Assembly: GCA_020852715.1 (NCBI GenBank)
Contig: JADZAE010000060.1
Coordinates: forward strand, 8,786-72,785
Direction: 5' to 3'
Length of the DNA stretch: 64,000 bases
Origin: Deltaproteobacteria bacterium
GTDB taxonomy: Bacteria; Bdellovibrionota_C; UBA2361; SZUA-149; JADZAE01
Part shown: piece by piece, positions 2,360 through 61,870 of the stretch
Layout of the letters: every line of letters starts with the position of its first letter
Position numbering within the stretch: position 1 is the first letter of the stretch
Position numbers and translations under genes: made by a program
Notes under the pieces: model-generated
Told to the model about the DNA's origin: nothing
Database searches by the model: none
Seen by the model: only the letters and a program-made list of their open reading frames with translations

Positions 2360-2530
2360 AAAATGCCGCGGGCGACTTGGCGCGCGTGGCATGATCTGGA
2401 GGCTGCAGGCCCGAAGATCTGACGCGCCGGCGACACAGTTGTTCGCTGACGCGCACAACATGTATCCGCGCTTCACAAGCGTTTGTAAAATTATTTACCA
2501 TCGTGGCGGCGTGGCCGAGGGTGTTAGCGT
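2360..2530. repeat. GC-rich intergenic repeat, copy A. Carries the conserved core and the 3' module 'cttcacaagcgtttgtaaaattattt…cgtggcggcg' shared with copy B.
   Basis: A local GC spike in an AT-rich genome. Both 'ggcccgaagatctg' and 'cacaagcgtttgtaaaattattt' are shared almost exactly with 14745-14932. Core 'cagttgttcgctgacgcgcacaacatg' is shared with copies C, D and E. Confidence 0.7.
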
Positions 2531-4077
2531 TACTTTTCGTCGGGGTTGATAGCTAAATCAAAGGTCAATGTCTTATTCGGGGTAATTAATGTTTTCTTGC
2601 TTCCTTCGATTAAGGCCATGCTCCGATAGCCTTGCGAAACAATGGTTGAGGATTCGCTGGGGGTGAGATCGTCATTTAAGCCCTGCCCGCGCATTAGGGT
2701 TGGTAATAACTTGGTTAGGCTTTGATATTCATCGTTTCTACTTCTATTCAGGGTAGCGATCGTATCTGTGCATTTGGAATTTTCCGGTCCCAAGCAGATA
2801 AAAGCCAGCGGCACATTTATTAATTCCTGAAATAGTGGGCTATCGTGCGCGTGTAGCAGATACCCATGTTCGCCCAATGCTTCTCCGTGATCTGAGGTGA
2901 TGGCAAGTAGTATGCTTTGATTATTGCTTTGAGCGTGAGCTTCTATTTCTTTGATTAGGGCAAACACATTTTGGTCATTAAGTCGGACAGCTTGCTGATA
3001 CTGGTCAGTGATGTCATTTTTAAGCTTGGCTTTTATTGCCTCTGTGCCTTTCATGAACTGGCCGACAGTATTTAGGTAATTGGCCTGTATGCGGTTCTTT
3101 ACTCCCATAAATGGGAAATGCGTTCCGTAAAAATGCACTGTCAGAAAATACGGGGCAGTGATGGCGGCGTTTTCTAAGTCATATTTGATTGTTCGCACAA
3201 TGGCTTGATCGTCAAAGCCATGTTCCAGTTCGTAGAGGTTGATACCTTTTAATCTTTTCGCTAACAACTTCTCCTGAACTAAGCGTTTTCTGATTAGCGG
3301 CGGAGTTTGCAATTTTAGCTGGGGCTCGCAGATAAAAAGCGCTTCTAAGTTAAGCCAGTGATAGATTTGTGCCGAATATAAATAATTATGCACACCACTT
3401 GCCGCCAGCTCACGAAAATATGAATCATTGCAAGAAAAGGTTTGATTACCGATTTCGCTACGAGAGTGAAAGATGCGCGGCACAGAGATACTGGTTTCGC
3501 CGCCGGGGCTGATAAAATTCGAGTTTAGGTAATGTGGCCGGCTATGCAGATAACTAAGCACCTGAGGATAGTAGTCGCTAGTAAAATGCTTACTGTTTAC
3601 CGACTCCATTAAGAGTAGGACAACATTTAAGTCTACGCTCACATTTTGTTTGGGCAATGGAGCGATGTCGGTATCGAGCATTGTAACTTTTCGCTCATTA
3701 ATAAAGTTTCCTGAACTTGGTAGCTGTAGAGAAGGAGCGCTAAAGTGATATTTTTGCCAGCTATAGGCCATGATAATTAAAAAAACTATCATGATTATGC
3801 GTAGATTAACGCCCTTAACTTTAAAGTTACGACTGTAGTAGAGAGCGTAAAAAGTAATCACCACGAGCGCGAAACTATCCACCCAAAAAAGAAATATCTC
3901 GATAGGGCTAAAACTATAAAGGCCGGTATCAATGACTTCTTTGAAGGCAGGGGCATTTAGTGAATAGGTGAAGGATATTGTATAGCCGAAAACATCGTAA
4001 ATTTTATTGTTAAGATAAACAAAGCCCATTACAAACGCTGTGCCTAAAGCGATAAAAAAATCGATAAATTTTTTCAT
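2530..4077 (-). CDS. Sulfatase / alkaline-phosphatase-superfamily membrane protein (phosphoethanolamine-transferase- or LTA-synthase-like).
   Basis: About 5 N-terminal TM helices followed by a sulfatase-type periplasmic domain (…LAITSDHGEALGEHGYLLHAHD…, HFYGTHFPF). Confidence 0.65.
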   Translation of the reverse strand: MKKFIDFFIALGTAFVMGFVYLNNKIYDVFGYTISFTYSLNAPAFKEVIDTGLYSFSPIEIFLFWVDSFALVVITFYALYYSRNFKVKGVNLRIIMIVFLIIMAYSWQKYHFSAPSLQLPSSGNFINERKVTMLDTDIAPLPKQNVSVDLNVVLLLMESVNSKHFTSDYYPQVLSYLHSRPHYLNSNFISPGGETSISVPRIFHSRSEIGNQTFSCNDSYFRELAASGVHNYLYSAQIYHWLNLEALFICEPQLKLQTPPLIRKRLVQEKLLAKRLKGINLYELEHGFDDQAIVRTIKYDLENAAITAPYFLTVHFYGTHFPFMGVKNRIQANYLNTVGQFMKGTEAIKAKLKNDITDQYQQAVRLNDQNVFALIKEIEAHAQSNNQSILLAITSDHGEALGEHGYLLHAHDSPLFQELINVPLAFICLGPENSKCTDTIATLNRSRNDEYQSLTKLLPTLMRGQGLNDDLTPSESSTIVSQGYRSMALIEGSKKTLITPNKTLTFDLAINPDEK

Positions 4078-4328
4078 TATAGATGTAGTAAAAATATACC
4101 AAATACTTATTTGACCTTAAGTCTGCAAGATAATTAAACTTATTTTACTGATTGATCAACAGCAAAAGTCGCGTTTTTAGCTACTTTTAGTCGATATCTA
4201 TCATCTAACCATCTGAGAAGTAAGCTGTTTAGCCATTAACTGTATAATGGCCTGTGGTCGAATATCATTAGGTCTGAAGTGTATAGTTGGCTCAATGGCA
4301 AAGTGGTTTTCTTTTGCGGAGGCATTTC

Positions 4329-5486
4329 ATGGCGATTAGTAAATTAGAAGGTTCCCTAACCACAATTTCCGAAGGACAAAGCGACAATCGTATAGATCTT
4401 TCGTCTAGTTCTCGAGAGTATTACAAGCTTAAAGGTTTACTGGAAAAAGAGCGCGGTAATTCTCATTTGATTATTCTTCAAGGCACACCTGATCCTGATG
4501 CTATCTCTTCAGCTATGGCTTTAGGATTTCTGGGGATGCCTTACGGTATTGAGGCAACAGTGCTTTGTTTTATGGCTGTTAGTCATCAGGAGAATAGAGC
4601 TTTAGTAAAAAAGCTAGGTATTAAGCTGACAGTTTACGAGCAAGGTTTTGATTTTGCTAATTATGACATTTACAGCATAGTTGATTCACAAAAGCCTTCT
4701 ACGCCCGTTGATAAGCAGCTGCGCGAGGAGGGTGTTCGTTTTTTTGCTTTCATTGATCATCACCGTCCTGATCCGGCCGGTGTTCCTTATGCGAGCTTTG
4801 TTGATATTCGGGATGATGCAGCGAGCACTGCCGGTATTATGACGAGTTATATTGAGCAAGCTTATCCTGCGGGGCTGGATTTAGGAGACCCGGAGCAGGT
4901 GATTATGGCTACGGCATTAATGCATGGCATCAGAAGCGATACGCATAAATTTATTCGGGCTTCTCTGCTAGATCATCAAGCGGCAAGTTATTTATTTCCT
5001 AGTGTCGCCCATCAAACAATAGAACTGATTGAAAGAAAAATTTTAACCGCCGCGATGCTGGAAATGCTTGAGCAAGCACTGGTTAATAGAAAAGCGATAG
5101 ATAATATTATCTACTCTGATGTCGGGTTTGTAAGAGCCATTGATCGCGACGGGATTCCTCAGGCCGCCGAACTGCTTGTTACTCGCGAAGGTATAGATAC
5201 GGCGCTGGTTTGGGGCATAGTCGATGAAAAGTTTATAGACGGCTCATTTCGCACACGCAGCGAAATGATTAATCCTGATGAATTTCTAAAAGGCTGTCTA
5301 GGAATCTCACCGCAAAATGGCGAATATTACGGCGGCGGCAATTCGCGTGACAAAGGTGGTTTTCAAATTCCGCTTGGCTTTCTTTCTCAGTTCGACGATA
5401 AAGAACAAGTCTATGCTATGGCCAAAACGATTATTGAGCGATCTTTGCTTGATTATATAGGGAAAGCTTCTGAAACTGACAGATAA
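4329..5486 (+). CDS. DHH-family phosphoesterase (NrnA-like oligoribonuclease / pAp phosphatase).
   Basis: DHH motif (FIDHHRPD) and a DHHA1-like GGGNSRDKGG motif. GGAGG lies 7 nt upstream of the ATG at 4329; the longer ORF starting at 4287 lacks an SD. Confidence 0.7.
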   Translation: MAISKLEGSLTTISEGQSDNRIDLSSSSREYYKLKGLLEKERGNSHLIILQGTPDPDAISSAMALGFLGMPYGIEATVLCFMAVSHQENRALVKKLGIKLTVYEQGFDFANYDIYSIVDSQKPSTPVDKQLREEGVRFFAFIDHHRPDPAGVPYASFVDIRDDAASTAGIMTSYIEQAYPAGLDLGDPEQVIMATALMHGIRSDTHKFIRASLLDHQAASYLFPSVAHQTIELIERKILTAAMLEMLEQALVNRKAIDNIIYSDVGFVRAIDRDGIPQAAELLVTREGIDTALVWGIVDEKFIDGSFRTRSEMINPDEFLKGCLGISPQNGEYYGGGNSRDKGGFQIPLGFLSQFDDKEQVYAMAKTIIERSLLDYIGKASETDR

Positions 5487-5534
5487 ACGTACAGTCGGAT
5501 CCGCACGCAGTTAAATTAGCAACAAAGTAGAGTA

Positions 5535-7451: not shown

Positions 7452-7527
7452 TTTTGAATAAAAACGGCTTGCCTAGCGTAAACTAAAGGCGAATTAGGTT
7501 GAGCGATAACTGAAGAAGAGGTGCAAA

Positions 7528-14744: not shown

Positions 14745-14932
14745 GGGTTTGGCATCTATGGCCCGAAGATCTGGCGCGCTAACGTTGATAATGTCAGCTA
14801 CCGTGTGCGGCTATGCCGCCAACTGCCGAGGATACGTGCGGCGCAGGCGAACCAGCTGTTTACAGCATGTCTCGCGTTCCACAAGCGTTTGTAAAATTAT
14901 TTGCTTCCGTGGCGGCGAAGGCGAGGAGGAAT
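14745..14932. repeat. GC-rich intergenic repeat, copy B.
   Basis: Shares its 5' and 3' modules with copy A. The core carries an internal deletion relative to A, C and D. Confidence 0.7.
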
Positions 14933-15466: not shown

Positions 15467-15633
15467 AATTTTGACAATAAAGCTTAGTATCTCTGTATGC
15501 TAGATTCTGGCTTTTGCCCCAATTAAGACTTAAAATCAACCCCATTTGTTTTGTATAAAGACGGCTTGCCTAAATAAGACTTATAGGCAAAATTACTAAA
15601 GCGCATAGAAGCTTATTTGCTAGGGAGATCAAT

Positions 15634-17935: not shown

Positions 17936-18851
17936 AATAGCTTTAATCGGCGGCGGTAATATCGGCGGCAATCTTGCTTATTTGTCCTGCATTAAAGAGT
18001 TAGGCGATATTGTGCTTTTTGATGTTGTCGAAGGCATGCCGCAAGGTAAAGCGCAGGATATTATGCATGGCGGGGCTATTTTTAATTCCAGCGTAAATGT
18101 TACCGGCACAAATAACTTTGCTGACATTGCCGGTGCGGATGTGGTGATAGTTACGGCGGGCATTCCGCGCAAGCCAGGCATGAGCCGCGATGATTTAATT
18201 GCTACCAATGCCGGAATCATGAAGGCAGTAGCCAAGAACATTAAAATCTATGCGGCCAATGCTTTTGTCATAGTTGTCTCAAACCCGCTTGATGCTATGG
18301 TTACGCTTTGTCAAAAAGAAAGTGGCTTAGCACCGAACATGGTTGTGGGTATGGCCGGCGTGTTAGACTCGGGCAGATACCGCACATGGTTAGCCGAGGC
18401 TCTTAATACTTCACCGGCTTCTATTCATGCCTTGGTTTTAGGTGGGCATGGCGATGATATGGTGCCGATTCGCTCTAAAACAACTGTAAATGGAATTCCC
18501 GTGGAGAGTTTATTAAGCACAGATAAACTAGATGCTATCGAAAAGCGCGTTTGTGGCGCCGGTGGGGAAATAGTGGCGTTATTAAAAATAGGCTCGGCGT
18601 TTTATTCTCCCGCCGCAGCAGCTATTGAAATGGCTGAGAGTTATTTAAAAGATCAAAAGAAAGTTCTTCCCTGCGCGGCTTATCTTACCGGGCAATATGG
18701 AGAAGAAGGAATTTATCTTGGCGTGCCGGTGAAAATCGGTGCCGGGGGGGTAGAGAAAATCATCGAAATAGATCTAACTGCTAAAGAGAAAGAAGCTCTG
18801 TCCACCAGTGCCTCGCGCGTTCGAGAGTTGGTCGCTCTGTTGCCAAATTGA
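17922..18851 (+). CDS. mdh: Malate dehydrogenase (LDH-like family).
   Basis: KIALIGGGNIGGNLAYL Rossmann fold, GIPRKPGMSRDDL and NPLDAMV. Confidence 0.9.
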   Translation: MKRNKIALIGGGNIGGNLAYLSCIKELGDIVLFDVVEGMPQGKAQDIMHGGAIFNSSVNVTGTNNFADIAGADVVIVTAGIPRKPGMSRDDLIATNAGIMKAVAKNIKIYAANAFVIVVSNPLDAMVTLCQKESGLAPNMVVGMAGVLDSGRYRTWLAEALNTSPASIHALVLGGHGDDMVPIRSKTTVNGIPVESLLSTDKLDAIEKRVCGAGGEIVALLKIGSAFYSPAAAAIEMAESYLKDQKKVLPCAAYLTGQYGEEGIYLGVPVKIGAGGVEKIIEIDLTAKEKEALSTSASRVRELVALLPN

Positions 18852-18868: not shown

Positions 18869-19269
18869 TTAGGGTATGCGGCGCGAGAGTCTTATACACA
18901 AGTTGCTCACTAAGAATGTCGTTTTTAATTTTGCTACAAAATGACTATACGCAACAAAAGAGATGTCCTCTGTGGAGCGCGAGCCATGTTGCGAAGCGAC
19001 TGGGTCGCTTGAGGATCGCGGAAAAACTGTATTTCTCGGCATTAGTCGCCACATTTAAGGTCATTGGGAAACCGACACGGAGGCGACCCTGTTGTTCGCT
19101 CGCGCTCACATCATGGGTCGCGTTCCACAATACGTCATGCAAATTTAGGAGTTCGTGGAGCTCACGCTAGAGCCTCTTGAAGGCGCTCTTTCACGACTTG
19201 TGTATATGAATCAGCGTTCTGCGTGCCCTAAGCCTACTTGATGAATAGGTGTTATTTTGCTATACGCAA
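18869..19269. repeat. MITE-like GC-rich element, copy C. It fills the whole mdh-ndk intergenic region.
   Basis: Imperfect terminal inverted repeats: ttagggtatgcg…tatacacaagt (18869-18903) and acttgtgtata…gcgtgccctaa (19196-19231). A direct repeat attttgcta[+9]tatacgcaa (18928-18954) matches attttgctatacgcaa (19254-19269). Conserved core at ~19087-19125. Confidence 0.6.
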
Positions 19270-23770: not shown

Positions 23771-24089
23771 TCAATTGGTGCTCGCCACTCGTCTTTAAAT
23801 AAGGAATATGCAGTTGCTCCTTTATTATTGTTAGCTGCTAGATGTGCTTCTAATGTCGCACCGCGCCTCGTATTCGGCTCAAAATCGCGACGGTTACAGG
23901 TTATTTAAAAATATAAATTTTTATCTCTTGATATGTTGTAAGTAGCTGCTTCCTCACATATTAATAAGTCGTCAACGAATACTAACGGGCAGTCATAAGC
24001 AAAATTCACGAATCCATCAAATACGTTACTTGAGAATATTCCGCGTAAGCGCCGGGTGCGGTAGAGCCGAAATAAGGAGATGCTACATA

Positions 24090-24235
24090 TTTTTGACAAG
24101 TCAGCGTTCCGCTTTGCTTCACTACTATCATGCGCACCCAGTAGCTGCCGCGGGCATGTGACGCGTAGGTGAGTCCGTTGTTGTCTAACGCTTACAACAT
24201 GGGTAGCTAATACTAGAATTCATTAAATACGTGCT
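24090..24235. repeat. GC-rich repeat, copy E.
   Basis: The segment ctatcatgcgcacccagtagctgccgcggg matches 33185-33215. Core ccgttgttgtctaacgcttacaacatgggtag at 24176-24210. Confidence 0.55.
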
Positions 24236-33129: not shown

Positions 33130-33330
33130 CAACGGGTGGGCGCGATAGCGCCGGTCGCCCCTACGAATTGCGAAGCATCGCCAAGGCAATACTGCTGTCA
33201 TGCGCACCCAGTGCGGCAGCAATATTTTGTAGGCCGATCGCGCTGACGCGTGCTGCCCTAAAGTAACGCATTTGATGGATTTGTGTTCAGGCACCGCGTG
33301 TGCCCAAAAATTGCCGCGGGCGCCATTTCC
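33130..33330. repeat. GC-rich repeat, copy F.
   Basis: ctgtcatgcgcacccagtgcggcagc matches copy E. Contains GC-rich palindromic segments. Confidence 0.5.
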
Positions 33331-44477: not shown

Positions 44478-47400
44478 TCAGTATGCGTAGGGACGGCCTT
44501 TGGCCGTACTGTCAAAACTGACTTGACCTGAGGCTCCCAATGGTAATGGTATTACCGCGTCGGGCATTTGGTCTTGTAAGAAACTGCCATCAGCATTTTT
44601 CTTTAACGGGTCTTTATAAAAGAATAGTTGTTTATATGGCCTTTCTTGAAGGTTACTTGATGAATAACCATCATTACCAACAATCATTTGATTCAGGCTA
44701 TCGAAGGCCAATGACACAGGAGAATTTGGATTATTTACTCTGTCACTGCATTTACTCATAGCAGATTGAGTTAGGGATGCTTTATTAAACACTTTCTTGG
44801 CACCTATATTTGGAAACATTGTTGTCACTGTTTCCATTTTCTTTAAATCCTCTGCCATAAAAACAGTGATGCGATTATTGCCATGGCATTCATAGTGATT
44901 TTCGATGACGTAGAGATTCCCTTTACGGTCAAAGCGCGCAACATTAGGGTTGCAAAGCGAGCTTGCGTCAGTTGGCGAGTATGCTATCCAAGAATCTTCT
45001 TGGCGCTTGTTACATAGGTGACCGGATTTGGAAATCTGTCCCACCACTTTGTCAACTAAAACTTTGCCATTGATTAGATCGATAGTTTTGGCGCTTAATA
45101 GGCGGTTATTATACCAATCAGCAAACCAATATTTGTTGTTAATCTTGTCGAAATCGACGCTAACAATGCCAGTGTTTGTAATTGATGATGCCGAATTGTC
45201 TGCCCAGACTAAGTGAGCAGTTGTTAAGGGCAGGGCATTAGCTTGTATAGATAGCTGAAAACCGATTAACAAAAAATTTTCTCCCATTAACCAGAGGCGT
45301 TTGTTATTGTCTATTGCCCGGTGCGACAAGCCTTCTAAGAAATTATTACCAATTTTTTGTTGGCACTATACTCATTATTTAAGCCAACTATAATATCAGC
45401 AGGATTGCCTAAACCTTTATTTAGATAATCATTCCAAACCATCAGGCGCTTATTGGCATAACCGATTAACTGTGTTCCGGTAGCGAAGGCACCAACTGCA
45501 CCGTCATAGATGACGTTATTTTTAGTTTTTGGATAATGAGAATTTAATCTCCCCATAATACCCCCGATTGGATCAGGTAGGCAGTTATAGCTAGTGCCAT
45601 TAATGGTCTTCCTGCCAATCAAATAGGGCATTTTAAAAATATCAATGCGATGCCGCATTTCTCATATACTTCATAGTCAGCACCGATGGTCGTATTATTA
45701 AGTGCATCGATGGTTTTTAAAATATTTCCGTTATCATCGATTAAAATTATCCGTTGCATGACCCCATCAGTAATCCATATCCCGGCCGGAAAATTGCTAT
45801 CAATGTAGCCTGATGTGGGCGTGTTAAAAGCTAGATCATGAGTTGAAGTGTAGTAAGCCACGCAATCAGTAGAATTATAATAGCGGCAAACAGTTTATTG
45901 CTGCTTAACCGTGATTACTCTTGCTGCGGGCATGCCATTATAGAGGCCCTTGGGAGCCGCGGGGCTAAATACTAATAGCCGTTGGCGAAATGCTTCGGGA
46001 TATTCGTCTACGACATAGATGTTACCAGTAGTTTGGTGAACCTTTACAATATCTGGGGTACAAAAGCGATTAGTCGGAGCATTAATTATCGTTGGGGACA
46101 AATTAAATCCCAATCCACAATTATTGGTGACAGAATCAATTGTGGTATTGAAAGATGTTTATCCTAAAACAAGATTGGCCGTTTTGGAATTAGGCGGGAA
46201 TCTTAATACTCGGCTATTGTATGTATCAGCTACCCACATATTACCGTCTTTATCTACAGACATTCCGCGATCGGAAACATGATCAAAAGGGAAATCGTAG
46301 TTTCGGACGTCCCCACAAATAACGAAATTGGGCAGCTAGAAAAGTCGCTTCGTCCTTGATTGGGGTTATTTTGGGAGAAATCGCTTTGACCCCAGACAAA
46401 ATCAGCAACAGTATCTCCCTCGCCAATGGCCGTTTTTGTTCCGTAAGGTTTGTTGTATTTCAGCACGCGGTTATTGTGAGCATCTATCGCATAAAGATTC
46501 CCAACGCTATCCACGTCTAAGTGCATGCGCGTCCAATATTCTGCTAAGTTTGTCCTCCGTGGTAATTCTAAGTAGCAAAGCGTATTATTGGCTGCTTGCT
46601 TGCTAATGCCCTGCATATTATCCCGATTACAGCCACCGGAGGTGAAATTGGCCTGGCCAAAAACTCTATCTGCCGCCTTATCTCTGTTGGTATTACAGGC
46701 CACCAAGTTAGGGCAAATTTTTATTGGTGCAGGCAATGGTCGAGTTATTAGAGCTGGTGCCGAGGCTGGAAAATCCTAAAATGCGATTATTGCCCGAGTC
46801 GATTACATAAAGGATGTCAGACTGGGAGGGACGCTTATCTATGGCGATACCCGCCGCATGAAATGCGGTTATTGGTAACAGCTCCTATCTGAACCTCAGA
46901 CATAGAAGGCTGACCAAAATTTTTAACATCGGCAGGTTGTGGAATAAAAGTGTAGCTGCTTGAGCTTTGGGAGGACGATTGCAGGGAAGAACTGCGAGAT
47001 GAGGATATTGAGCTATAAGCGACAGAGGAAGAGGATACTTTACTACTGACTATCGAAGAGATGGCGGAGCTTTAGCTAGCTAAGCTTTGTGAGCTAAACT
47101 GGGTTTCGGAGGAAAGAGTAGAGGACTGAGAAGATACTTCGTTTCCAGCTTCGGTAACATCACCGACCAAATATCCACTAGCGGATGTTAGGGCGTAGTT
47201 TTAGCCTTTAATATTGACTTTAAAAGATTCCCTAACTTAATATTTAACCCGGCACGCAAATCATAGGGAGAATGATAGAGATAGGCATTCATTTGTCTTG
47301 TTTCATTGCCAGTGATGATATTGATTTTAAAACGTGCCGGGGCCACTAAAAATTCACTTCGGAAAAATGACTCAAAAACCTCGAATTTGCCGCTAAATGA

Positions 47401-49773: not shown

Positions 49774-49859
49774 AGTTTTCTCCATCTTTTTGCTAAATAT
49801 GTAGCATTCCAATAGTTAGGTTATTAACACATTTTATTATCTGATCATAGCTGGCTAAA

Positions 49860-50940
49860 GCAATACTCCTCCGCCTTTCTGGCCTCAGACTTTGTCCAGA
49901 CATCGGCAATAAAAAAAACGCCTACTGCCGGGCGAATCAGCCAACGATTCAAACTCACAAAAGCCATTGGAGCGATCAGCTCCCGCCGATCCAAACCAGC
50001 CATTACAAATGCGAGCCTCTTTCTCTGAATCTTGAGCTATGCAGTAACGCCTATGCCCATTAGGATAAATGTCTTAAATATCAGGTTGCCTACCACTTCG
50101 ATGTGCAGTGGATTGCCTCTCTCGAGGAAAGCAAGATATAGCATTATTAAAACCAAACTCCGGCAGCAAACGTAAAAATGCCGATGATAGCATAACCAAC
50201 CGCGCAGTAGATGATTCAATTTGCGCCTCCGCCTGTCTAATTAATTCCGCCGCAATTTCCCCAAGCTGACTTTTATGCTCGCTCGTTAAACGCAACGGAA
50301 AATTCTTTGCTAATTCTTCCTCGATTCAAAATTGTGGCGATTTCCATGCATAAACCATCGGAGAACAACTAAAACGTATTTTTCTCTCTTTTGCTCATTC
50401 ATGTAAAGGCAACGTATCGTCGATATTGGATTTAGAAATTGTTTGATGAATACACACCGTATAACCACTCGCCGCCAACTGTTTAGCCACTCTTAAACCA
50501 TAATAAGTTTTTAAAGCCGAAGTCCCAAGCCAAAGAGTATGGCCCAGAATGTGCTCGTTCTTTGCTGGCGAGAAAAGTGCATGGCAATGCCGGAGATGCC
50601 GGCCACGAAAAGAATATTGAGTTTTGCATCGAAGGTAGCAATAAAGACTAAAAATGTTATGCCAAAGTTGAAACCGGCCATAATGGGGAAAACCTGCTCG
50701 GCGGCAATTAATCCGGCGACTGTCATACTAGCTAGAATGGCCAAAGCGGCAGTGGCGCTTTGCCTCAAGACGCCGGACAAGATACCAAAACCTAAAGAGC
50801 GAAAGCACGATCTATCCACAGTAGAAACCATTGCGCGAAATCTTTAACTGCTAGTTTTTGTAAATGTTCACTCAGTAGTCTAAGTCCAAAAAAGAACAAA
50901 GCCAGGGCAAACAGCAAATTTGCACTGATCAGTGTCATTG
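49860..50940 (-). pseudogene. Degraded Na/Pi-cotransporter (NptA-like, with PhoU-like C-terminal domain).
   Basis: An N-terminal frame …LALFFFGLRLLSEHLQKLA…, then a second frame …ATAALAILASMTVAGLIAAEQVFPIMAGFNFGITFLVF… (the QSSSATT/GANiGTT-like region), then a third frame with a PhoU-like helix (…AELIRQAEAQIESSTARLVMLS…). The gene is broken by frameshifts. Confidence 0.5.
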
Positions 50941-51160
50941 TGCGCCTTTTAAAAATATATACCTGATTACGCGCCTATAGCATTATCCTCCGTGATTAAA
51001 AAGGGAGTCGAGTTTTATAGATTATTTCTTGGTTCAATTAATTTCGGTCTGTCGGCTAATTTATCGCGGACTGTTTGAAGTAAAAAGCGCGAAGAGTTGT
51101 GTTTATAAAGGCAAGAACGGGGGAAGCCCATGCAATAACTTCCCCCGAACGCACTGGTTT

Positions 51161-51661
51161 TTACGGGCCGGAAATATTTTCGATCAGCCACTCTACCTCC
51201 GGTTTTTTCAGCTCAGCAATTTGTTTGGTGATAGCAGCAGCTAGGTCGGAATTGGTAAGCTCAGAGTTATTGAGCATTTCCAAAAATTTATTAGCTGCGT
51301 CCAAGCTGGGATCTACTTCTTTGACCTTCATCACCATCGATAAGGCCTCTGCCGGCTGCGATGCGGCAAGGCATTTTAGTCCCTGCGCCAAATAGTAACT
51401 CGATAAACCTTTCGATATCGGCGCTATTTGCTGCACCTTATCCAGCTGCCGCCAGTAACCGGCATAGTCTCCACTTCGCAAGCAGTCATTAGCTTTGCTT
51501 TGCAGATACTCTGCGCGCATGAAATCCTGTAACAACACCACTAGGCAAACAAGGAAGAGCAGCGGGGTAAGTAAATAGCGGCCGATATTGCGCGGACTGC
51601 TGCTTAGATCAATGTTTCGTTGTGGTTTATCCTCGGTAATTAGATTGTCAAAGAGACTCAT
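51161..51661 (-). CDS. Hypothetical single-TM protein (paralog of 51960..52448).
   Basis: AGGAGG SD 7 nt upstream. One TM helix. A C-terminal …IAELKKPEVEWLIEN… motif is shared with its neighbour. Confidence 0.55.
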   Translation of the reverse strand: MSLFDNLITEDKPQRNIDLSSSPRNIGRYLLTPLLFLVCLVVLLQDFMRAEYLQSKANDCLRSGDYAGYWRQLDKVQQIAPISKGLSSYYLAQGLKCLAASQPAEALSMVMKVKEVDPSLDAANKFLEMLNNSELTNSDLAAAITKQIAELKKPEVEWLIENISGP

Positions 51662-51959
51662 AATCTAACCTCCTAAAAAATGTCTTTTGCAAGCAAAAGT
51701 TAAAACCTTTACAACTCTTCACAGCTTTACTAAATAAAGCCATGAAAGGAATGTCTTACTACCCGTGTTTAAAATGTGGCGGTAAACTAATACAGATAAG
51801 TTAAAAAGAGAAGATAGCAGCTTTCTGCCTACAATATTGCCTAGTTGGAACAAATCCGAAGTCGGAAGTGGGGATGTGATTTGTATGAAATGGGTTAAAC
51901 CTTGTTTTAAGGGGGGGGACCTTATTAAAAGCAAAGACTCCCCCCGTAACCTTTTTGTC

Positions 51960-52448
51960 TTATGGCTGCTCTGCCAGTTGCTTCTGGTCTAACAGCCACT
52001 TGGCTTCTGGGCGGTTAAGCTCGTTGACTTCTTTGAGCATAGCAGCCACCAATTCCTCATCGGACAAGTTACGCGCCACAATGTCTGACGCTATCCTTGC
52101 GCCGGTGAAATTGGGGTCAAAACCGGACGCTTCACCGAGGAAGTGAAGGCCCAAATTTCTTTTCCCCTCCTGAAATCGCTGTACACCTTTGACGATGTAG
52201 TAAAATGCCATTTCAGGCTGCTTGACGCCGTCGAAATAACTGCGATCCAGCAATGCCCAGTAGAGACTGTAGTCGGAGTTCTTCAGCGCTAATGAAGATT
52301 TCGCTATCCGATCGCTTACCGACATATTCCAGTGCGCGCCAATCAGAATCAAAACCCCTAAGACGGCCATCACAACAGATGGCCCAAAATATACCTTCAT
52401 ACTCTCGAGACGCATTTTTGTTGTTTTGACCTTTGACAGGTTGCTCAT
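51960..52448 (-). CDS. Hypothetical single-TM protein (paralog of 51161..51661).
   Basis: GGAGG SD 6 nt upstream of the ATG at 52448. One TM helix. C-terminal …VNELNRPEAKWLLDQ…. Confidence 0.55.
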   Translation of the reverse strand: MSNLSKVKTTKMRLESMKVYFGPSVVMAVLGVLILIGAHWNMSVSDRIAKSSLALKNSDYSLYWALLDRSYFDGVKQPEMAFYYIVKGVQRFQEGKRNLGLHFLGEASGFDPNFTGARIASDIVARNLSDEELVAAMLKEVNELNRPEAKWLLDQKQLAEQP

Positions 52449-52905
52449 GATAAAACCTCCTTCTTTTGTCTCCCTGAAACTCAGGGGCATAACCTTTACT
52501 CCACTTCATACAGCTCTTTTAGAAGGGCTGCATGAATGTCATATATCTTCTGCTCTGATTTTAGTAATGATTTAGGGGCACCTTAATATTACCGTCCTTT
52601 CTTGTCAAGATCTAGGGCAATTAAGAACATAACTAATACAGCGCCGAAGATATCCTTGTTTTATAGGGCACTAGCTGGCCTTTCCCACATGCACATAAAA
52701 AGTGCATGAAGAGGGTTCAAAATCTAGCTATAAATTCCACGAGCGGGGAGGTTTAGTGCGCGAATTGATAGCTATTTTTCCGAAGCTGCTTTCATTGACG
52801 GACATAGTTTAAGTGGGTAAAACGCCCGCTATTGCTGCGAGCTTTAGGGCACATGCGGCATTAAAATTTTTAATTATATCTATTAACTGTAGAACGAGGT
52901 GTTTG

Positions 52906-55185
52906 ATGGAAAAGGCAAGCTTAACTGAGGCAGCTTTAGCGGCAAAGAATGTTAAAGCGGGGGAGACTTCCAGCGACGATTATTCGTTGCCGACTTTGCC
53001 TAGCGATGACATTCGCCAAATCATGTGGCGCTATTCTGATCGCTACGATTTTCAAATGATGGTGCAATCGGCGCGCTCAGTGGCGCGTGGGTTGGTTGCC
53101 AATCTAGTTGCGCAAGGTCAGCGCAATACTCATGAGTGGACTGAGGAGAAGAACACCTTGCTTAAGGCATTTGATGAATCCGGCATTACCTCGATGTATA
53201 TGAATATGGAGCATGGAGGATTTATTCCGGGGCCCAAAAACGTGGTGCTTGCTTTGGTGGCTTTTGAGCTGGCTTGGGTTGATGGCGGTGCGGCGACCTG
53301 CTGCTTAGCGACTAACTTGGGGCTTTCGCCAATTGCTGCTTGCGGAACCCAAGAGCAAAAAGATCATTATATGAGCTTAGCTGCGGCTAAGCCTGCTGGA
53401 GATACACGTCCGCATTGGCGCGCTGCTTTTAACTTAACTGAGCCGCTGCCTTATGTGGGCGTAGAAACGGGTATGCTCAACGGTAAGATTCGCATCGTTG
53501 AGTGGGAGAAGGGTAAAGAGCCGATTATTCAAGTGGAAAAGCGCGGTCGCTTTATCACCAATATGGACTTTGCCAAGTTTGTTACGGCGGCTGTTGATTC
53601 TGCTGATGAGAAAATCAAAGGAAGCTGCATGGTCATCATTCAAGAAGATGACCCGGGTGTATTTGACCGCGGTGCTGTCACTAAGAAAATGGTGCATCAG
53701 CTCTCTTCGACGCGCGACCCGATATTTAGTATGCGCGTTCCGGCTAGCCGCATCATCGGTGGCTACAAGGTCGTTGATGGCGTGATTATTCCTAATTGGA
53801 GCCACAGCGATATTTTGGAAAACGTTTTCCGCCGCACACGTGTGCCTGTGGGCATTATGACTTCAGCTAAATTGCTCTCTGCAGTTGAGCCGATTATCCG
53901 CTATCAGCGCACACGTTTTCGCGGTGCTGAGAGCATTAATCCGGGTTCACCGCGCTATGAGTTGGGCATTCAGCTAAAAGAAGACTCACAGCATCGTCTA
54001 ATTGACGTTTGGTCATTTGGTGAAGCCGGCGCTTCTTTAGGCTTCTGGACAGAGCGCGTACTTGATGATTTCGACGCCGTAGAAGAAGCCAAAAACGAGT
54101 ATTTTAAGTCACAGGGGATAGACACAGCGCGCGCACAGATGCGTGCTATGGCTGCTGTAGAGAAAGAAGCTAGCGAGCTAGTGAACCTTGAAGTCATGGG
54201 ACAAAAAGATAGCCCGCGCTACTCTGAGCTAAAAGAAAACATTTTAGTAAACTTCGTCGCTTATGATGCACTGTTAAATGTGCTTTGCCCCGCTGTTAAG
54301 CTCTGGAATACTTCCACGGGAGCGACAATGCTTAGAGAAGCTGTGTCTTTGATGGGCGGCTACGGCATCACTGAAGATTGCCCGGGATTCTTGATGCAGA
54401 AGTGGATCGATGCTCAGCTGGAAGCTACTTACGAAGGGCCGGAGTCAGTGCAGCGCCGTCACTTGGCTGCTACTATGACTAACGAAGTTTTCTTAGCCAC
54501 GGTAAAAACTTGGGTTAAAGAAATGCGCGTGATCGCTAATCAGCGCCCGGGCACAGGAGCTTGCGCGCTGGGAACAGCTATGCAGCTTTGGTTAGAAACT
54601 ATTAACTACGTGAAAACGGCAAAAGATGCTGATGGTTCGAAGATGTATAGCGGCACACGCCAAGGCGTTTCTTTTCCACTTGCTGATGCGCTTTGCTGGC
54701 TATTAGCGGCTCGCGCTTTAATACTAGATACTATTGAGCTTGAGGAAAAGGGCGGCGCTAATCCTAACATTGCTTCGGGCTTAGAAGGCTATACGCGTTT
54801 TTACACAGACATGTGCCATGTTCTCGCAGCGCGCGCTACCGGTGAGTCGGCGCGGCTATGTGCTGATATCGTTTACGGCTATCGCCGCCATCCGGCATGG
54901 GACAGCACGACTCCGGCCTGCTGCTATTCGATAGGGGATTTGGACGCTTTGGATTCTTTGATTCCGGGCATTGGCTCTACAGCCAGCGCTTGCACTGATG
55001 TTTCCGAAGACGGCAAGCATCCGATTAAAGCAGGTCCTTGTGCTAACTGCGAAGGCATTGAGAAAATTACTGTTCTTCGCGCTAAGCTTGATCGCTGCAC
55101 TACTGGTAGCCGTTTAGCTAAAGATCGTGCGGCTGTTGCGCTAACCAAGGTCATGATTCCTGAGGCGCTGGATTATCCGAAATGA
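52906..55185 (+). CDS. Long acyl-CoA dehydrogenase (FadE-like: ACAD core plus C-terminal extension).
   Basis: An ACAD C-terminal signature (…MGGYGITEDCPGFLMQKWIDAQLEATYEGPESVQRRHLA…) at ~residue 500 of ~760, then a ~250-aa C-terminal domain. A GAGGTG SD precedes 52906. Confidence 0.75.
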   Translation: MEKASLTEAALAAKNVKAGETSSDDYSLPTLPSDDIRQIMWRYSDRYDFQMMVQSARSVARGLVANLVAQGQRNTHEWTEEKNTLLKAFDESGITSMYMNMEHGGFIPGPKNVVLALVAFELAWVDGGAATCCLATNLGLSPIAACGTQEQKDHYMSLAAAKPAGDTRPHWRAAFNLTEPLPYVGVETGMLNGKIRIVEWEKGKEPIIQVEKRGRFITNMDFAKFVTAAVDSADEKIKGSCMVIIQEDDPGVFDRGAVTKKMVHQLSSTRDPIFSMRVPASRIIGGYKVVDGVIIPNWSHSDILENVFRRTRVPVGIMTSAKLLSAVEPIIRYQRTRFRGAESINPGSPRYELGIQLKEDSQHRLIDVWSFGEAGASLGFWTERVLDDFDAVEEAKNEYFKSQGIDTARAQMRAMAAVEKEASELVNLEVMGQKDSPRYSELKENILVNFVAYDALLNVLCPAVKLWNTSTGATMLREAVSLMGGYGITEDCPGFLMQKWIDAQLEATYEGPESVQRRHLAATMTNEVFLATVKTWVKEMRVIANQRPGTGACALGTAMQLWLETINYVKTAKDADGSKMYSGTRQGVSFPLADALCWLLAARALILDTIELEEKGGANPNIASGLEGYTRFYTDMCHVLAARATGESARLCADIVYGYRRHPAWDSTTPACCYSIGDLDALDSLIPGIGSTASACTDVSEDGKHPIKAGPCANCEGIEKITVLRAKLDRCTTGSRLAKDRAAVALTKVMIPEALDYPK

Positions 55186-55257
55186 AGCTACTTGGCTATT
55201 TGTTGTTGTGGCAAGTGGCAGAAAGATAGGTAAAATTAGAAGGTAAGAGGGTAGGGC

Positions 55258-57108
55258 ATGGCACAGGTAGAAAGGCAGAAATTGGAAGCGGATATTGTTT
55301 GCGTAGGCATGGGGCCGGCAACAGGCGGCTTTTTAACTACGCTAACTAAAGAAATCTCCGAGCATCAAGGCGAGAGCTACCTAGATAGCAAAGTCATGCC
55401 GGGTATGCCGCTACAGGTTCTCTGCTATGAACGCGCCGACGATATGGGTTTTGGTGTTTCCGGTGTGGTCTCCCGCGCACGCGGCATCAAGCAAAGCTTT
55501 CCTGATATTGACTGGAGCCAGATTCAAATGGCTGCTCCGGTTAAGGGCGAAAAGCTTGCTTATCTATTAGACCCCATTGGGGCAAGTTGTCGCTCTGGGC
55601 TCTTTAAGTTCAGTGATACGCTGATTCGTAGCCTCAAAGCTGTTCTTCCTTACAAAGACGAAGCTCTGGAAATGCCTTTCATTCCGCCGTTTATGGAAAA
55701 GCACGGAGGGGCAGTGTTTTCGATCGGCCAGTTTAACCAGTGGGTAGGCATGAACTTGATGAGTTCAGGGCAGGTGCAGATCTGGCCGGGCATGCCTGTA
55801 GAAAAGCCGCTGGTGGAGAATAAAAAAGTTAAAGGCGTGCGCTTGGTCAATCAAGGTGTGGAGAAAAGCGGCGCCGAGACTGAGATGTTTATGCCGGGCA
55901 TGGACATAGAAGCCGCGCTTACTGTGGTGGGCGATGGACCGGTAGGCGCTGTCGGGCAGTATTTGGACGAAGAGTTTGGTATGCCCCAGGGGCATCACAA
56001 GCATGAGTGGGCTGTGGGCATGAAGTTCGTCGTGCAGCTTCGCGATGATGTGGACTTGGAGCCGGGTACAGTGTTTCATACTTTCGGCTATCCTGAGCCG
56101 GAGGTTTTTGGCTTCATGTATATATATCCGGGTAAGGTGGCATCATTAGGGATTTTCATTCCTTCTTGGTTTGATAATCCGGTGCGCACAGCTTACCGTT
56201 ATTTGCAACATTGGATGATGCATCCTTATATTTGGAAGCATGTAAAAGGCGGCACACTAAAGTCTTGGGGTGCTAAGTCGCTGCAAGAGTCGGGCATCAC
56301 AGGGGAACCGCATCTTTGTGGCGATGGCTATGCGCGCATTGGCGAGGGGTCAGGCAGTACAAACGTGCTCACCGGCTCCGGCGTGGATGAAGCGTGGACT
56401 ACGGGAACTCAGTTAGCTGAAGGCGTGATTGAGTTACTAAAAGCCGGAAAGCCTTTTACCAAGGAGAATTTAGAAGCAACTTATGTGGCGAAGCGCCGCG
56501 CAAGCTGGGTGCAGGAAGAGGGTAAAGTTGCTGAGAAGTCGCGAAACGGTTTTAGCTACGGAGTTATTCCGGGGCTAATCGGTATGTCGCTAGCCGGGTT
56601 TTCTAAAGGGCTACTGAACATTCCGGCCAAACTCGTCGCGCCGCATAAACGCTACAAGAGCTTGGAGCAGTATTTTGCCGGCAAGCTTTCAGTGCAGAAG
56701 ATCGCCGAGATCAGAGAGATCTGCAAAAAAGCTAATAAGACCATACATGATGAAATTATGAATGCATGCGGGTGGCCGGAGATTCCCTATGACGGTACGC
56801 TACTGGTAACTCAGCAAGATGCTCTACTGATAGGCGGTAAGGTGCAGGCTCAAGGCGGCTTCGCTGATCATGTAGAGTTTATCGATACAGATATTTGCAA
56901 AGGCTGTGGTATGCAGGTGTGCGTAGAGATTTGCTCGGCGCAGGCTATTGCTCCGGGCGAAGAAGGGGTGCCAGTGTTTGATCGCGAGAAGTGCGTGCAT
57001 TGTGGCGCTTGCTTGTGGAACTGCTCGCAAGAGTTACCGCAGGGACACGGTGTCACCAACGTGAAGTTCGGCGCCGGCTGCGGCGGCCTGCATAGCGTGG
57101 AGAATTAA
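55258..57108 (+). CDS. Electron-transfer flavoprotein:ubiquinone oxidoreductase (ETF-QO; FixC-FixX-like fusion).
   Basis: FAD-binding N-terminus (DIVCVGMGPATGG) and a C-terminal 4Fe-4S ferredoxin-like cluster (CKGCGMQVCVEICSAQ…CVHCGACLWNCS). Confidence 0.85.
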   Translation: MAQVERQKLEADIVCVGMGPATGGFLTTLTKEISEHQGESYLDSKVMPGMPLQVLCYERADDMGFGVSGVVSRARGIKQSFPDIDWSQIQMAAPVKGEKLAYLLDPIGASCRSGLFKFSDTLIRSLKAVLPYKDEALEMPFIPPFMEKHGGAVFSIGQFNQWVGMNLMSSGQVQIWPGMPVEKPLVENKKVKGVRLVNQGVEKSGAETEMFMPGMDIEAALTVVGDGPVGAVGQYLDEEFGMPQGHHKHEWAVGMKFVVQLRDDVDLEPGTVFHTFGYPEPEVFGFMYIYPGKVASLGIFIPSWFDNPVRTAYRYLQHWMMHPYIWKHVKGGTLKSWGAKSLQESGITGEPHLCGDGYARIGEGSGSTNVLTGSGVDEAWTTGTQLAEGVIELLKAGKPFTKENLEATYVAKRRASWVQEEGKVAEKSRNGFSYGVIPGLIGMSLAGFSKGLLNIPAKLVAPHKRYKSLEQYFAGKLSVQKIAEIREICKKANKTIHDEIMNACGWPEIPYDGTLLVTQQDALLIGGKVQAQGGFADHVEFIDTDICKGCGMQVCVEICSAQAIAPGEEGVPVFDREKCVHCGACLWNCSQELPQGHGVTNVKFGAGCGGLHSVEN

Positions 57109-57109
57109 A

Positions 57110-57312
57110 TATTAGATTGGGAGCGCGACCCATCTTTAGTAGCGGAGCGGAGAAAGTGGGCGCCTGCGGTTTAAGTTAGTTCGGCGGGTGTCGGCGGAGG
57201 CCGCTATTGCTGTGCTGCGCAGTAGCGTTTTGGCAATGTTCTGCGTCGGTGACCCAGTTGTTTGCTAGCGCTCACAACATGGGTGAGCGTTCCATAAAAC
57301 GCGGCGGGTGGT
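57110..57312. repeat. GC-rich repeat, copy D, inserted between the ETF-QO stop codon and its terminator, flanked by a perfect 18-bp direct repeat.
   Basis: atagcgtggagaattaaa occurs at 57092-57109 (gene 3' end including the stop) and at 57313-57330. The core ccagttgtttgctagcgctcacaacatgggtgagcgttcca is at 57262-57300. Confidence 0.75.
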
Positions 57313-57334
57313 ATAGCGTGGAGAATTAAACGTA

Positions 57335-57368
57335 AGGGCACGCTGCGCGTGCCCTGAACAAATTTTTA
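57335..57368 (+). terminator. Rho-independent terminator, presumably of the ETF-QO gene, displaced by the repeat insertion.
   Basis: Perfect palindrome agggcacgc-tgc-gcgtgccct followed by gaacaaattttt. Confidence 0.6.
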
Positions 57369-57399
57369 GATGTTAGAAAATAAACCAAGGAGATAAATC

Positions 57400-58212
57400 G
57401 TGAGTAATGCTTATTCGATAATTGTCTGTGCAGGCTTGGCGCCTGATCCGTTACAAAGGCTTGAGCCCATGGATACACCTACTGGGCCGGCGCTTAAAAA
57501 CGAAATGATGCTTCCTGCTGTGCTTGACCCGTGGGCGGCTTGCGCATTGTATGAGGCTGATAATCTAGCCAAGAAACTGCCGGGCTCTAAAGTTTACTTG
57601 GTGAGCATGGCGCTTAAGACAAAGCTCCAGCAAGTGATGATGGTGCTTTCGCAAAAAGTGCCTTTTGAGCTTGTCGCTATCGATGGGCCAAGTAACGGTT
57701 TTACTGATGCTCGCGAGTGTGCCTCAGAGCTTGCCCAAGCTATAGAAGCTATTCCCGGACTGGATAAGGACAAAATGCTTTTGTTCGGCGGTTGGGAGTC
57801 GGCTACCCGCGCCGCGGGTGCGACCATGCAAATACTTGGTGAGAAGCTAGGCGTTGTCGATCAGTTCCAAGGCGTGGACAAAATTGAGATTGAACCAAGT
57901 GGAGCGATTAAACTCTGGGAGCGCGTAGAAGGCGGAAAACAGCAAGTGTCACTTTGTGAAAGCGCTCCGGTGATGGTTGGCTGGGCGACAGGCGAGCTGC
58001 CTGAGCCACCAAATAATCCGCAAGTTGGTATGGCGAACATGCGCACAGTGATGCCGGCGTTACAGAAGGCAAAATCTGCCGCCGCGAGCAGCTCAGCACT
58101 GAAGTTTAAGGGAGTAACTTTACCGGCGCAGGTGCGTGAAACGCGCATTGAAAAGGACATGCCGGTAGAGGCTATCGCTCAAGAGTTAGTAACATGGATC
58201 AGGGGGAACTAA
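57400..58212 (+). CDS. etfB: Electron transfer flavoprotein beta subunit.
   Basis: Typical ETF-beta (FixA) N-terminus and overall pattern. Tightly coupled to etfA. Confidence 0.8.
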   Translation: MSNAYSIIVCAGLAPDPLQRLEPMDTPTGPALKNEMMLPAVLDPWAACALYEADNLAKKLPGSKVYLVSMALKTKLQQVMMVLSQKVPFELVAIDGPSNGFTDARECASELAQAIEAIPGLDKDKMLLFGGWESATRAAGATMQILGEKLGVVDQFQGVDKIEIEPSGAIKLWERVEGGKQQVSLCESAPVMVGWATGELPEPPNNPQVGMANMRTVMPALQKAKSAAASSSALKFKGVTLPAQVRETRIEKDMPVEAIAQELVTWIRGN

Positions 58213-58214
58213 GC

Positions 58215-59243
58215 ATGGATAAGATTTTATTAATTGCCCATACAGAGGCTAATGGAAGTTTAAGCAAAGCCTCATTAGAAGCACTGACCTGTGCTAAAGA
58301 TTTAGCTGCCAGCCTAAGCACTACTTTTGCTGTAGGCGTGTTTGGCGAAAACACAGCTAAGGCGCTTGAGCAAATCGGTTCTTGCGGAGCAGAGAAGTAT
58401 CTAAGCGTGTCCGGTGCTGATTTCAAAGACGCGCGCTACGCAACTGACTCTTATGCCGTAGAAGGAATATATAGAAAGGCGCAAGCTTCTATTGTTATAG
58501 CAGCAGGCACTTCGCGTATGAACCGCGTGATACCGGGTGTTGCGCACCGCGTTGAAGGTGTAGCCGAGCTGCATGTTAGTAGCATTGCCGGAAGCGCTAC
58601 CGAGCTAACGGCAACTCGCTGGCTATACAGGCAACGCATAGAGGCCGTTATAACACGCGCCAGTCGTCCTTGGTTTTTGGGTGTTGATTCTGGGAACTAC
58701 ACTGCATGGACTGGTTCGACATCAGCCGTAACAGCTGAAAGCGTTGCGACTGAAGCTCCGGCGGCTTGTAAGCGCAGCAAAGTTGTGGGCCTAGAGTCAC
58801 CGGGAAGCGGCGAGCAAACTATTAAACCTGATGCTGAGCTTCTCATGGTTGCCGGCGCCGGTTGGACTAAGAAACAAGCTGACGGCACAGTACACGCGCA
58901 AGAAGCCCGTAAGACTATTTTGGGCTTCTTATCCAAGAGCGGAGCTTCCCTAGGTGGCTCTAAAGCTATGGTCGATTTGGATAGCGAAAACCGTGAAGCC
59001 TTCAACTTCATGACTCACCTAAACCAAATCGGTCAGACAGGCACCTCGCCGCGTCATCAAAAAGGGCTATCCACCTGCTGCCACGGCGAAGAGCCGCACG
59101 CAGTCGGCTGGCGTTTCATCAATGAGCGGCGCGCCGTAAACCTTGACGCCAACTGCGGCTGGGCCCGCGGCAAAGCTGACGTACTCTATGTCGCTGATGC
59201 TTTTGCTGTTATGGCTAAGGTAAATGAGCTATTATCTAAATAA
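58215..59243 (+). CDS. etfA: Electron transfer flavoprotein alpha subunit.
   Basis: ETF-alpha FAD-binding C-terminal region (…AGAGWTKKQADG…, …VLYVADAFAVMAKVNELL…). AGGGGG SD. The ORF-track start at 58194 overlaps etfB. Confidence 0.8.
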   Translation: MDKILLIAHTEANGSLSKASLEALTCAKDLAASLSTTFAVGVFGENTAKALEQIGSCGAEKYLSVSGADFKDARYATDSYAVEGIYRKAQASIVIAAGTSRMNRVIPGVAHRVEGVAELHVSSIAGSATELTATRWLYRQRIEAVITRASRPWFLGVDSGNYTAWTGSTSAVTAESVATEAPAACKRSKVVGLESPGSGEQTIKPDAELLMVAGAGWTKKQADGTVHAQEARKTILGFLSKSGASLGGSKAMVDLDSENREAFNFMTHLNQIGQTGTSPRHQKGLSTCCHGEEPHAVGWRFINERRAVNLDANCGWARGKADVLYVADAFAVMAKVNELLSK

Positions 59244-61267: not shown

Positions 61268-61408
61268 AATCATTGATGCTTTGAATAAAGTGAAGATAGG
61301 GGATTTGGTCACAATTGAGATTATTCGAGGCCAAAAACAAATCTCCAAGAAGTATAAAGCAGTTAAGGCGCAAGGGTAGGGCTATTAAATTAAAAATAAG
61401 TGATACTT

Positions 61409-61624
61409 ATGAAAAATGTGAAGTTTCTATTGGTGACAGTAATTTTATTAATATTCATGGCTTGCAACCAGCGTGGTGAGGATAAAACAGAAAGGGAAGT
61501 TAAAGCTTCCTCTGGCTCGCGGGTGCTGGCTGACTACGTTGAGCAATCGTTAAACAAAGCTAATGCCTTAAAAGACAAATCCGACCAGCGCACGCAGCGT
61601 ATCAACGACGAGTTGGACAAATAG
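61409..61624 (+). CDS. Small lipoprotein (hypothetical).
   Basis: Signal peptide with lipobox (LIFMAC) and a charged mature region. Confidence 0.4.
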   Translation: MKNVKFLLVTVILLIFMACNQRGEDKTEREVKASSGSRVLADYVEQSLNKANALKDKSDQRTQRINDELDK

Positions 61625-61639
61625 CGTTGTAGAGGCGCA

Positions 61640-61870
61640 CAAATTGGTAAGAAAGATTGAATGTGAAATTGCGGACGTTTGCAAACGCAAATACATCCTT
61701 ATGATCACGTATTCGCGGGGACAGCCTTTGGCCGTCCGCTACGATCGCGTGATCATGGCGGATGCACGCGTCAGCGCCACTGATCGTACGCGGCTTAGCC
61801 GTTATCCACCATGATGTTAGGGAGGTAGCGGATGCCCAAAGGTCATCCCTACAGGCCATCGTGTGAGCGT
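61640..61870. repeat. GC-rich repeat, copy G, with internal palindromes (a different subfamily).
   Basis: atgatcacg…cgtgatcat inverted repeat. The hairpin ggacagcctttggccgtcc recurs at 44486-44510 as ggacggcctttggccgtac. Confidence 0.5.

Follow-up and report, generated by a model that had tools for sequence, protein, structure and literature searches.

Repetitive extragenic palindromic (REP) sequences and their paired forms, the REP doublets forming hairpins (REPINs), are best described in Proteobacteria, for instance in Escherichia and Pseudomonas. Single REPs are 21–65 nt long and carry a 5′ tetranucleotide head (GT[AG]G or GTGG) located at the foot of a hairpin or at most 2 nt away from it; they occur either alone or as inverted pairs, known as bacterial interspersed mosaic elements (BIMEs) or REPINs, and are linked to a single gene for a REP-associated tyrosine transposase (RAYT; PMC6006769). 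REPIN spacers of ~71 and 110 bp are on record, their lengths varying while the ability to form a hairpin is kept, and REP singlets are viewed as decaying remnants (PMC3337134). Here we analysed a 64-kb window, that is, the complete 64,000-nt stretch taken from contig JADZAE010000060.1 of a Deltaproteobacteria bacterium assembly (GCA_020852715.1), and a series of GC-rich blocks in its intergenic gaps. These blocks probably (at an estimated probability of about 0.6) represent a lineage-specific family of REP/BIME/REPIN-like palindromes, lying beside a second, GTAG-type REP family in the same window. The main family matches no described family. All copy counts given below cover this window.

Five blocks with a common core of ~40 bp had been pointed out in the original prediction, and all five (copies A to E) were recovered by nhmmer and covariance-model searches. 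A 30-nt core pattern with up to three mismatches allowed was matched at positions 2436, 19089 and 57255, always on the + strand, with zero matches expected (100 shuffles), and a looser core search added position 24175. Both nhmmer and the covariance model recovered 5/5 loci with E values from 1e-11 to 1e-18. The GC content of seven repeat blocks was 52–59%, compared to 43.8% for the window overall, and these blocks produced 14 mutual BLAST matches versus 0.13 in shuffled blocks. The earlier statement that a GC-rich block occurs in each of the longer intergenic gaps was an overstatement, such blocks being present in roughly 7 of the roughly 17 gaps that exceed 300 nt.

The core was confirmed as conserved, but the conserved unit is longer than first proposed, measuring ~55–65 nt and beginning ~20 nt upstream of the 40-nt core. 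It is a GC-rich imperfect palindrome (...GCG.AGG(C/T)GACCCAGTTGTT.GCT..CGCTCACAACATGGGTCGCGTTCCAC) that reads TGTGGA(A/G)CGCGACCCATGTTGT...ACAACTGGGTCGC on the opposite strand, with a GTGG-like head ~3 nt ahead of the stem. The tetranucleotide GTGG itself was found in three of seven main-family arms and one-base variants of it in three more, ~3 nt from the firm part of the stem. A hairpin model of 19 pairs, applied to the seven aligned arms, left 76% of cells paired, versus 28–53% with slid partners. In four pairs both partners were changed (20/500 shuffles); the covariation score amounted to 0.163 (7/500 shuffles). The internal deletion noted in copy B corresponds to a missing 10-nt hairpin tip, and the stem of this copy is kept by a T-A to C-G change despite the deleted loop.

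Inverted doublets were recognised at loci C and E, where a reversed unit lies 67–76 nt upstream of the core noted originally. The inverted arms at both loci were significant against shuffled sequence (0/500 shuffles each), were also detected by nhmmer and scored 49–57 bits with the covariance model. The whole C doublet folds as one hairpin of ~165 nt (z = −4.7, 0/200 shuffles), and a z score of −2.5 (1/200 shuffles) was obtained for the fold of the whole E doublet. The main family is therefore represented by two forms, inverted doublets whose two units, ~70 nt apart, fold onto each other as one long hairpin (C, E and, weakly, A) and singlets (B and D). Copy A possibly represents a doublet in which the spacer has collapsed. 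Copy D showed no inverted arm, a third inverted arm downstream of the core (marked by a CGTGG motif 39–43 nt past it) was not significant compared to shuffles, and no short target-site duplication was visible on inspection of the doublet ends at C and E.

The hairpin of block G had been assigned to a second subfamily of the same repeat. Its two predicted occurrences are present (61719–61737 and 44491–44509), but G constitutes a canonical REP family of the GTAG type in its own right instead of a branch of the main core. In each of the three G units, GTAG is followed after 0–1 nt by an imperfect 8-bp stem with a loop of 3 nt, an arrangement that fits the description of REPs in PMC6006769. Units G1 and G2 form an inverted doublet, and the fold of block G (61690–61890) gave z scores of −3.6 and −4.8 for its two strands. 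The singlet G3 overlaps the last ~10 codons of an unannotated open reading frame (ORF) of 283 aa (44478–45329, − strand) and may also be a bidirectional terminator. Strictly intergenic placement, as claimed initially, thus holds for the five main-family loci, all of which are flanked by ORFs having homologues and lie outside confirmed genes, but not for G3.

Comparison with relatives identified doublet E as an insertion: in two of them (79% and 69% protein identity) the gene orthologous to 55258–57108 is followed by the electron transfer flavoprotein (ETF) gene after 23 or 29 nt, versus a gap of 291 nt, holding the doublet, in the window. On either side of the doublet lies one copy of a 30-nt direct repeat (26/30 identical, the last 18 nt identical; 0/1000 shuffles), and the C-terminal motif GGLHS.xN*, to which the gene end in the left copy belongs, is conserved across the homologues examined. 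Locus D is flanked by a weaker direct repeat of 17–24 nt (8/1000 shuffles), with a spacing of 206 nt versus 221 nt at E; this repeat is a module found in block F as well. No significant flanking direct repeat was detected at A, B or C in the shuffle test. At locus C, a 454-nt gap (18852–19305) holding the doublet lies at the position of sucCD in the gene order mdh-sucC-sucD-ndk-rlmN, which is seen in relatives (loci L001–L004, L007 and L008). A candidate origin of copy C as a remnant of sucCD was rejected, with no residual similarity at C.

The modular, mosaic structure that had been described is a fair account of these blocks: modules are common to D and F, one of them inverted, and A and F have one 18-nt string in common. 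The 5′ and 3′ modules reported for A and B were found again, the former over 20 nt at 95% and the latter as a 66-nt stretch at 82% identity; in copy A, 10 nt separate the end of the 3′ module from the stop codon of gene 2530–4077 (− strand). Likewise, the 'tcatgcgcacccagt' module was present as proposed, common to 24121–24142 and 33191–33212 (91%). The first 17 nt of module m1 are repeated at 24216–24232. Block F, the fold of which was not significant, has one 14-nt string in common with G, and by eye the GACGCG motif of this string recurs 5′ of main units. Also by eye, a hairpin past E (57335–57358) resembles sequence of F and, partly, the sequence past C. Coordinates of all features are collected in Table 1.

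Table 1. Repeat units, accessory modules and direct repeats in the 64-kb window (positions are those of the window)
Feature	Position	Strand	Details
Copy A, main unit (core palindrome)	2417..2481	+	Covariance model 71.7 bits; REP-style head GTGA at right end, read on − strand
Copy A, weak inverted arm overlapping + arm	2372..2440	−	Covariance model with filters off, 19 bits, E 0.007; Smith-Waterman vs shuffles not significant
Copy B, main unit	14834..14887	+	57 bits; 10-nt hairpin tip deleted; compensatory stem change GCTGT/ACAGC
Copy C, left arm (reverse-complement unit)	18967..19021	−	48.9 bits; head TGTGGAGCGCGA at 18971; 0/500 shuffles
Copy C, right arm (originally predicted core)	19070..19133	+	74.7 bits
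Copy D, main unit	24156..24219	+	55.8 bits; tail broken by ~25 nt
Copy E, left arm (reverse-complement unit)	57113..57176	−	57.1 bits; 0/500 shuffles
Copy E, right arm (originally predicted core)	57236..57300	+	69.4 bits
5′ module common to A and B (GGCCCGAAGATCTGNCGCGC)	14760..14779 (B), 2408–2427 (A)	+	95% over 20 nt
3′ module common to A and B, copy A	2474..2520	+	CACAAGCGTTTGTAAAATTATTT...CGTGGCGGCG
3′ module common to A and B, copy B	14880..14926	+	
Module m1, upstream of D	24007..24052	+	Inverted copy in block F, 33240–33285; direct repeat of its first 17 nt, 8/1000 shuffles
Module m2 (TCATGCGCACCCAGT)	24121..24142	+	Also in F, 33191–33212; 91%; resembles 5′ half of unit
Block F, GC-rich mosaic without core unit	33130..33330	.	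m2 (+), m1 (−), hairpin, 18-nt match to 2357–2374
G1	61716..61745	−	GTAG-C-GGACGGCC-AAA-GGCTGTCC read on − strand
G2	61826..61852	+	GTAG-C-GGATGCCC-AAA-GGTCATCC-CTAC; inverted relative to G1
G3, singlet	44487..44512	+	GTAG-GGACGGCC-TTT-GGCCGTAC; between convergent genes
Direct repeat at E, left copy	57080..57109	+	True 3′ end of ETF-QO-like gene; encodes GGLHSVEN*
Direct repeat at E, right copy	57301..57330	+	Decayed duplicate of gene end; encodes GGWYSVEN*

By analogy with REP/BIME/REPIN systems, the main-family elements would be non-autonomous and would rely for copying, in the form of single-stranded DNA hairpins, on a Y1/HUH transposase of the RAYT type, predicted to be encoded elsewhere in the genome. 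In such systems a family comprises tens to hundreds of dispersed copies, and units of the family flank its single-copy RAYT gene. Singlets B and D would then represent decaying remnants, and inserted elements would mostly be neutral passengers, those between co-transcribed genes, as at E, potentially adding a stable stem-loop to the mRNA. All five main cores (5/5) lie on the + strand, which is the strand with positive GC skew. Such placement would fit replication-coupled single-strand transposition, albeit not significantly with five loci, two of which are possibly linked by duplication. The p value for 5/5 cores on one strand is about 1/16, and about 1/8 once A and B are treated as a single event.

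A number of observations weigh against reading the blocks as REP/BIME/REPIN-like elements. The outer stem pairs of the unit are weak and the folds of single units were mostly no better than those of shuffles, while the GTGG head is not invariant and is placed just beyond the 0–2 nt rule of PMC6006769. The known set comprises five loci with 7–8 arms, and A and B may stem from a segmental duplication rather than from independent insertion, since their flanking modules are shared. Copies are ~73–83% identical and display no sign of recent activity, and the main family therefore looks old or inactive. No RAYT or other Y1 transposase was found among the ORFs of the window. In addition, the 30-nt and 17-nt duplications at E and D are not expected from single-strand transposition of the RAYT/IS200 type.

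The distribution of the repeats beyond the window counts against the same reading. No copies were detected by nhmmer, fuzzy matching or the covariance model in ~1.4 Mb of related loci; the strict core pattern had zero matches in GTDB genomes and zero in JGI metagenomes, and the loose core pattern zero matches in IMG/VR. Five metagenome matches to the loose pattern were discarded as chance, their flanks being all unrelated.

The original prediction could match the core to no known family, and our Rfam check likewise gave no match: nothing overlapped the blocks even at E ≤ 5, with tRNA-Gln the only hit at the gathering threshold. Promoter and terminator scans of four loci returned nothing beyond chance.

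Among the alternative explanations we considered miniature inverted-repeat transposable elements (MITEs), in which the doublets would be deletion derivatives of a DDE-type insertion sequence (IS), the units its terminal inverted repeats, and mobilisation would depend on a transposase acting in trans and leave a target-site duplication. Copies C and E do carry inverted terminal copies of 40–55 nt around a ~70-nt spacer, E is inserted relative to relatives, direct repeats flank E and D, and a decayed ISL3-family transposase is present in the window. The latter is the sole transposase relic there (38796–39343, + strand, inside the gap 38025–39845), two frameshifted pieces of it matching PF01610 with E values of 4e-8 and 2e-27, but no sequence similarity connects it to the GC-rich repeats. 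No target-site duplication of 2–10 bp is visible at the ends of either doublet, the existing direct repeats being 17–30 nt long; each supposed terminal repeat is itself palindromic, a property typical of REPs but not of the ends of ISs; and singlets B and D are conserved as well as the doublet arms. We therefore regard a MITE origin as unlikely.

Structured non-coding RNAs or cis-acting mRNA elements (stabilisers, processing sites or attenuators), duplicated and kept as a family by virtue of RNA function, are an improbable reading of the blocks. It would be consistent with GC-rich blocks in an AT-richer genome, with a hairpin held by compensatory changes and with the presence of all five cores on the same DNA strand. 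Copies C and E, moreover, lie in sense orientation between co-directional genes and would be co-transcribed with them. However, orientation relative to flanking genes is mixed, and because A and B are antisense and D sits between convergent genes, their position with respect to transcription follows no consistent rule. The lack of an Rfam match at E ≤ 5 and of promoter- or terminator-like sites beyond chance also speaks against RNA function, as do the inverted doublets, which place the unit on both strands, and the orthologous gaps of relatives, which are without the element.

We attach similarly little probability to the blocks being relics of larger integrated elements, or products of repair-mediated insertions duplicating 17–30 nt of target, with the palindrome as a recombination site or cargo. 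The 30-nt direct repeat around the 191-nt insert at E, with GGLHSVEN* conserved on the left and GGWYSVEN* decayed on the right, is what such events would leave, and the direct repeat of 17–24 nt at D has a similar spacing. Yet the repeat is clearly host-derived at E alone, that of D being the module also present in F; A, B and C are without a significant one; no integrase gene is located nearby; and five relics per 64 kb would be unusual.

To our knowledge, direct repeats of 17–30 nt far exceed the duplications made by any known DDE transposon. It is accordingly conceivable, if improbable too, that the ~190-nt GC-rich elements are a miniature element that duplicates 17–30 nt of its target, rather than RAYT-type REPINs. 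If true, the long-duplication insertion at E would have regenerated the 3′ end of its target gene, keeping GGLHSVEN* and leaving GGWYSVEN* behind. The mechanism would then differ both from Y1 single-strand transposition, which makes no duplication, and from DDE transposition (2–14 bp); it could involve, for example, a cut with a very wide stagger, or an event guided by homology and akin to that of a recombinase. The 30-nt gene-end duplication at E, a single clear case, is the one feature described here that is possibly new mechanistically.

Finally, descent of the blocks from fragments of one decayed protein-coding gene, the scenario named in the original prediction as the one that would overturn it, is hardly tenable on frame, codon-position and parent-gene evidence: one + strand frame does read QLFA.AHNMG in four copies and continues to GGWYSVEN* in E, but stop codons occur 2–10 codons upstream in C and D, third positions are the least variable in the QLFA frame (variable columns number 7, 8 and 4 out of 15 for the three positions) and none of the frames has a coding pattern, no intact parent gene is present in the window, a six-frame pseudo-protein of the repeats found nothing at E ≤ 10 among 5.8 billion proteins searched, and the unit is inverted at C and E.

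The window as a whole is a piece of bacterial chromosome with housekeeping genes, including prs, a U32 peptidase gene, trmL, mdh, ndk, rlmN, ligA, purM and an acyl-CoA dehydrogenase/ETF operon. The nearest malate dehydrogenase (MDH) loci in GTDB genomes belong to uncultured Bdellovibrionales/Bdellovibrionota metagenome-assembled genomes (MAGs), at 68–73% identity. At the left edge of the window, a 766-codon open frame on the − strand (3–2300) continues past the first position; it has a spermine/spermidine synthase-like domain, and copy A consequently sits between two − strand genes rather than in an empty region of 2.5 kb. Several ORFs of 65–120 aa cross the GC-rich repeats (2162–2476 on the − strand, 2352–2549 and 18808–19170 on the + strand); they are almost certainly spurious and at risk of being annotated as hypothetical proteins.

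Other observations concern the surroundings of the repeats. The 3-kb stretch 49813–52812 holds short ORFs only, among them a 106-aa fragment of an Na/Pi cotransporter (50511–50831, − strand), which suggests pseudogenes or gene decay. The acyl-CoA dehydrogenase/ETF-ubiquinone oxidoreductase (ETF-QO)-like/ETF operon at 52813–59243 has a GC content of ~51%, compared to 43.8% for the window, and may have been acquired horizontally. Further short intergenic matches, unrelated to the main family, were observed between 7452–7475 and 15549–15572 (24 nt, 92%) and between 33053–33074 and 62427–62448 (22 nt, 91%).

Under the REP/BIME/REPIN-like reading, the presence of two such families in an uncultured Bdellovibrionota-like lineage would widen the known range of REP/REPIN repeats, which would in turn serve as markers for strain typing and for assembly checks in MAGs of this kind. 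A repeat family also explains the GC-rich islands between genes and warns against calling ORFs through them.

Set beside described systems, the blocks share selected traits with each of several classes. Of the three resemblances originally suggested, that to REP/BIME sequences was upheld by the palindrome, the inverted doublets and the insertion at E. Resemblance to MITEs was not, in view of the absence of short duplications and of DDE-type terminal repeats, and the in-frame insertion characteristic of Rickettsia palindromic elements (RPEs) was not seen. RPEs are similarly palindromic, dispersed and 100–150 nt long, but they are typically located in frame inside genes and translated, whereas the copies described here are intergenic and carry no coding signature.

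Correia/NEMIS elements of Neisseria and the enterobacterial repetitive intergenic consensus sequences or intergenic repeat units (ERIC/IRU) of Enterobacteria are closer in architecture, as elements of 100–200 nt that consist largely of one long imperfect palindrome, lie between genes, are often co-transcribed and are present or absent among relatives. Correia elements have 26-bp terminal repeats, a TA duplication and promoter and integration host factor (IHF) sites. The arms observed here differ from these in being palindromes themselves, without a short duplication or associated promoter-like sites.

With the subterminal hairpins of IS200/IS605 elements and of their miniature derivatives, the palindrome-associated transposable elements (PATEs), the blocks have in common a hairpin preceded by a tetranucleotide that resembles a guide sequence, the expectation of transposition as single-stranded DNA, and a possible orientation bias relative to replication, the five cores being on the strand of positive GC skew. 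Unlike in IS200/IS605, no tnpA or tnpB is found nearby, both ends are copies of one unit instead of distinct left and right ends (LE/RE), and no conserved target tetranucleotide lies beside the left ends.

The REP, BIME and REPIN sequences of Enterobacteria and Pseudomonas, which are moved by RAYT (TnpA-REP), differ from the main family in some respects: its unit falls near the upper size limit, with a degenerate head ~3 nt away from the stem, no described family was matched, no RAYT is encoded in the window, the copies are old (73–83%), and one insertion (E) is accompanied by a 30-nt target duplication, which REPINs lack. The likenesses are nonetheless broad. In both cases the elements are extragenic, GC-rich imperfect palindromes within the 21–65 nt range, and the hairpin is preceded on its 5′ side by a head of the GT[AG]G/GTGG type, which here is strict in family G and degenerate in the main family; singlets are found together with inverted doublets that have a ~70-nt spacer and form a long hairpin; more than one family is present per genome; no short target-site duplication is visible at the ends of C and E; and, as in BIMEs, the palindromes are combined with mosaic accessory modules.

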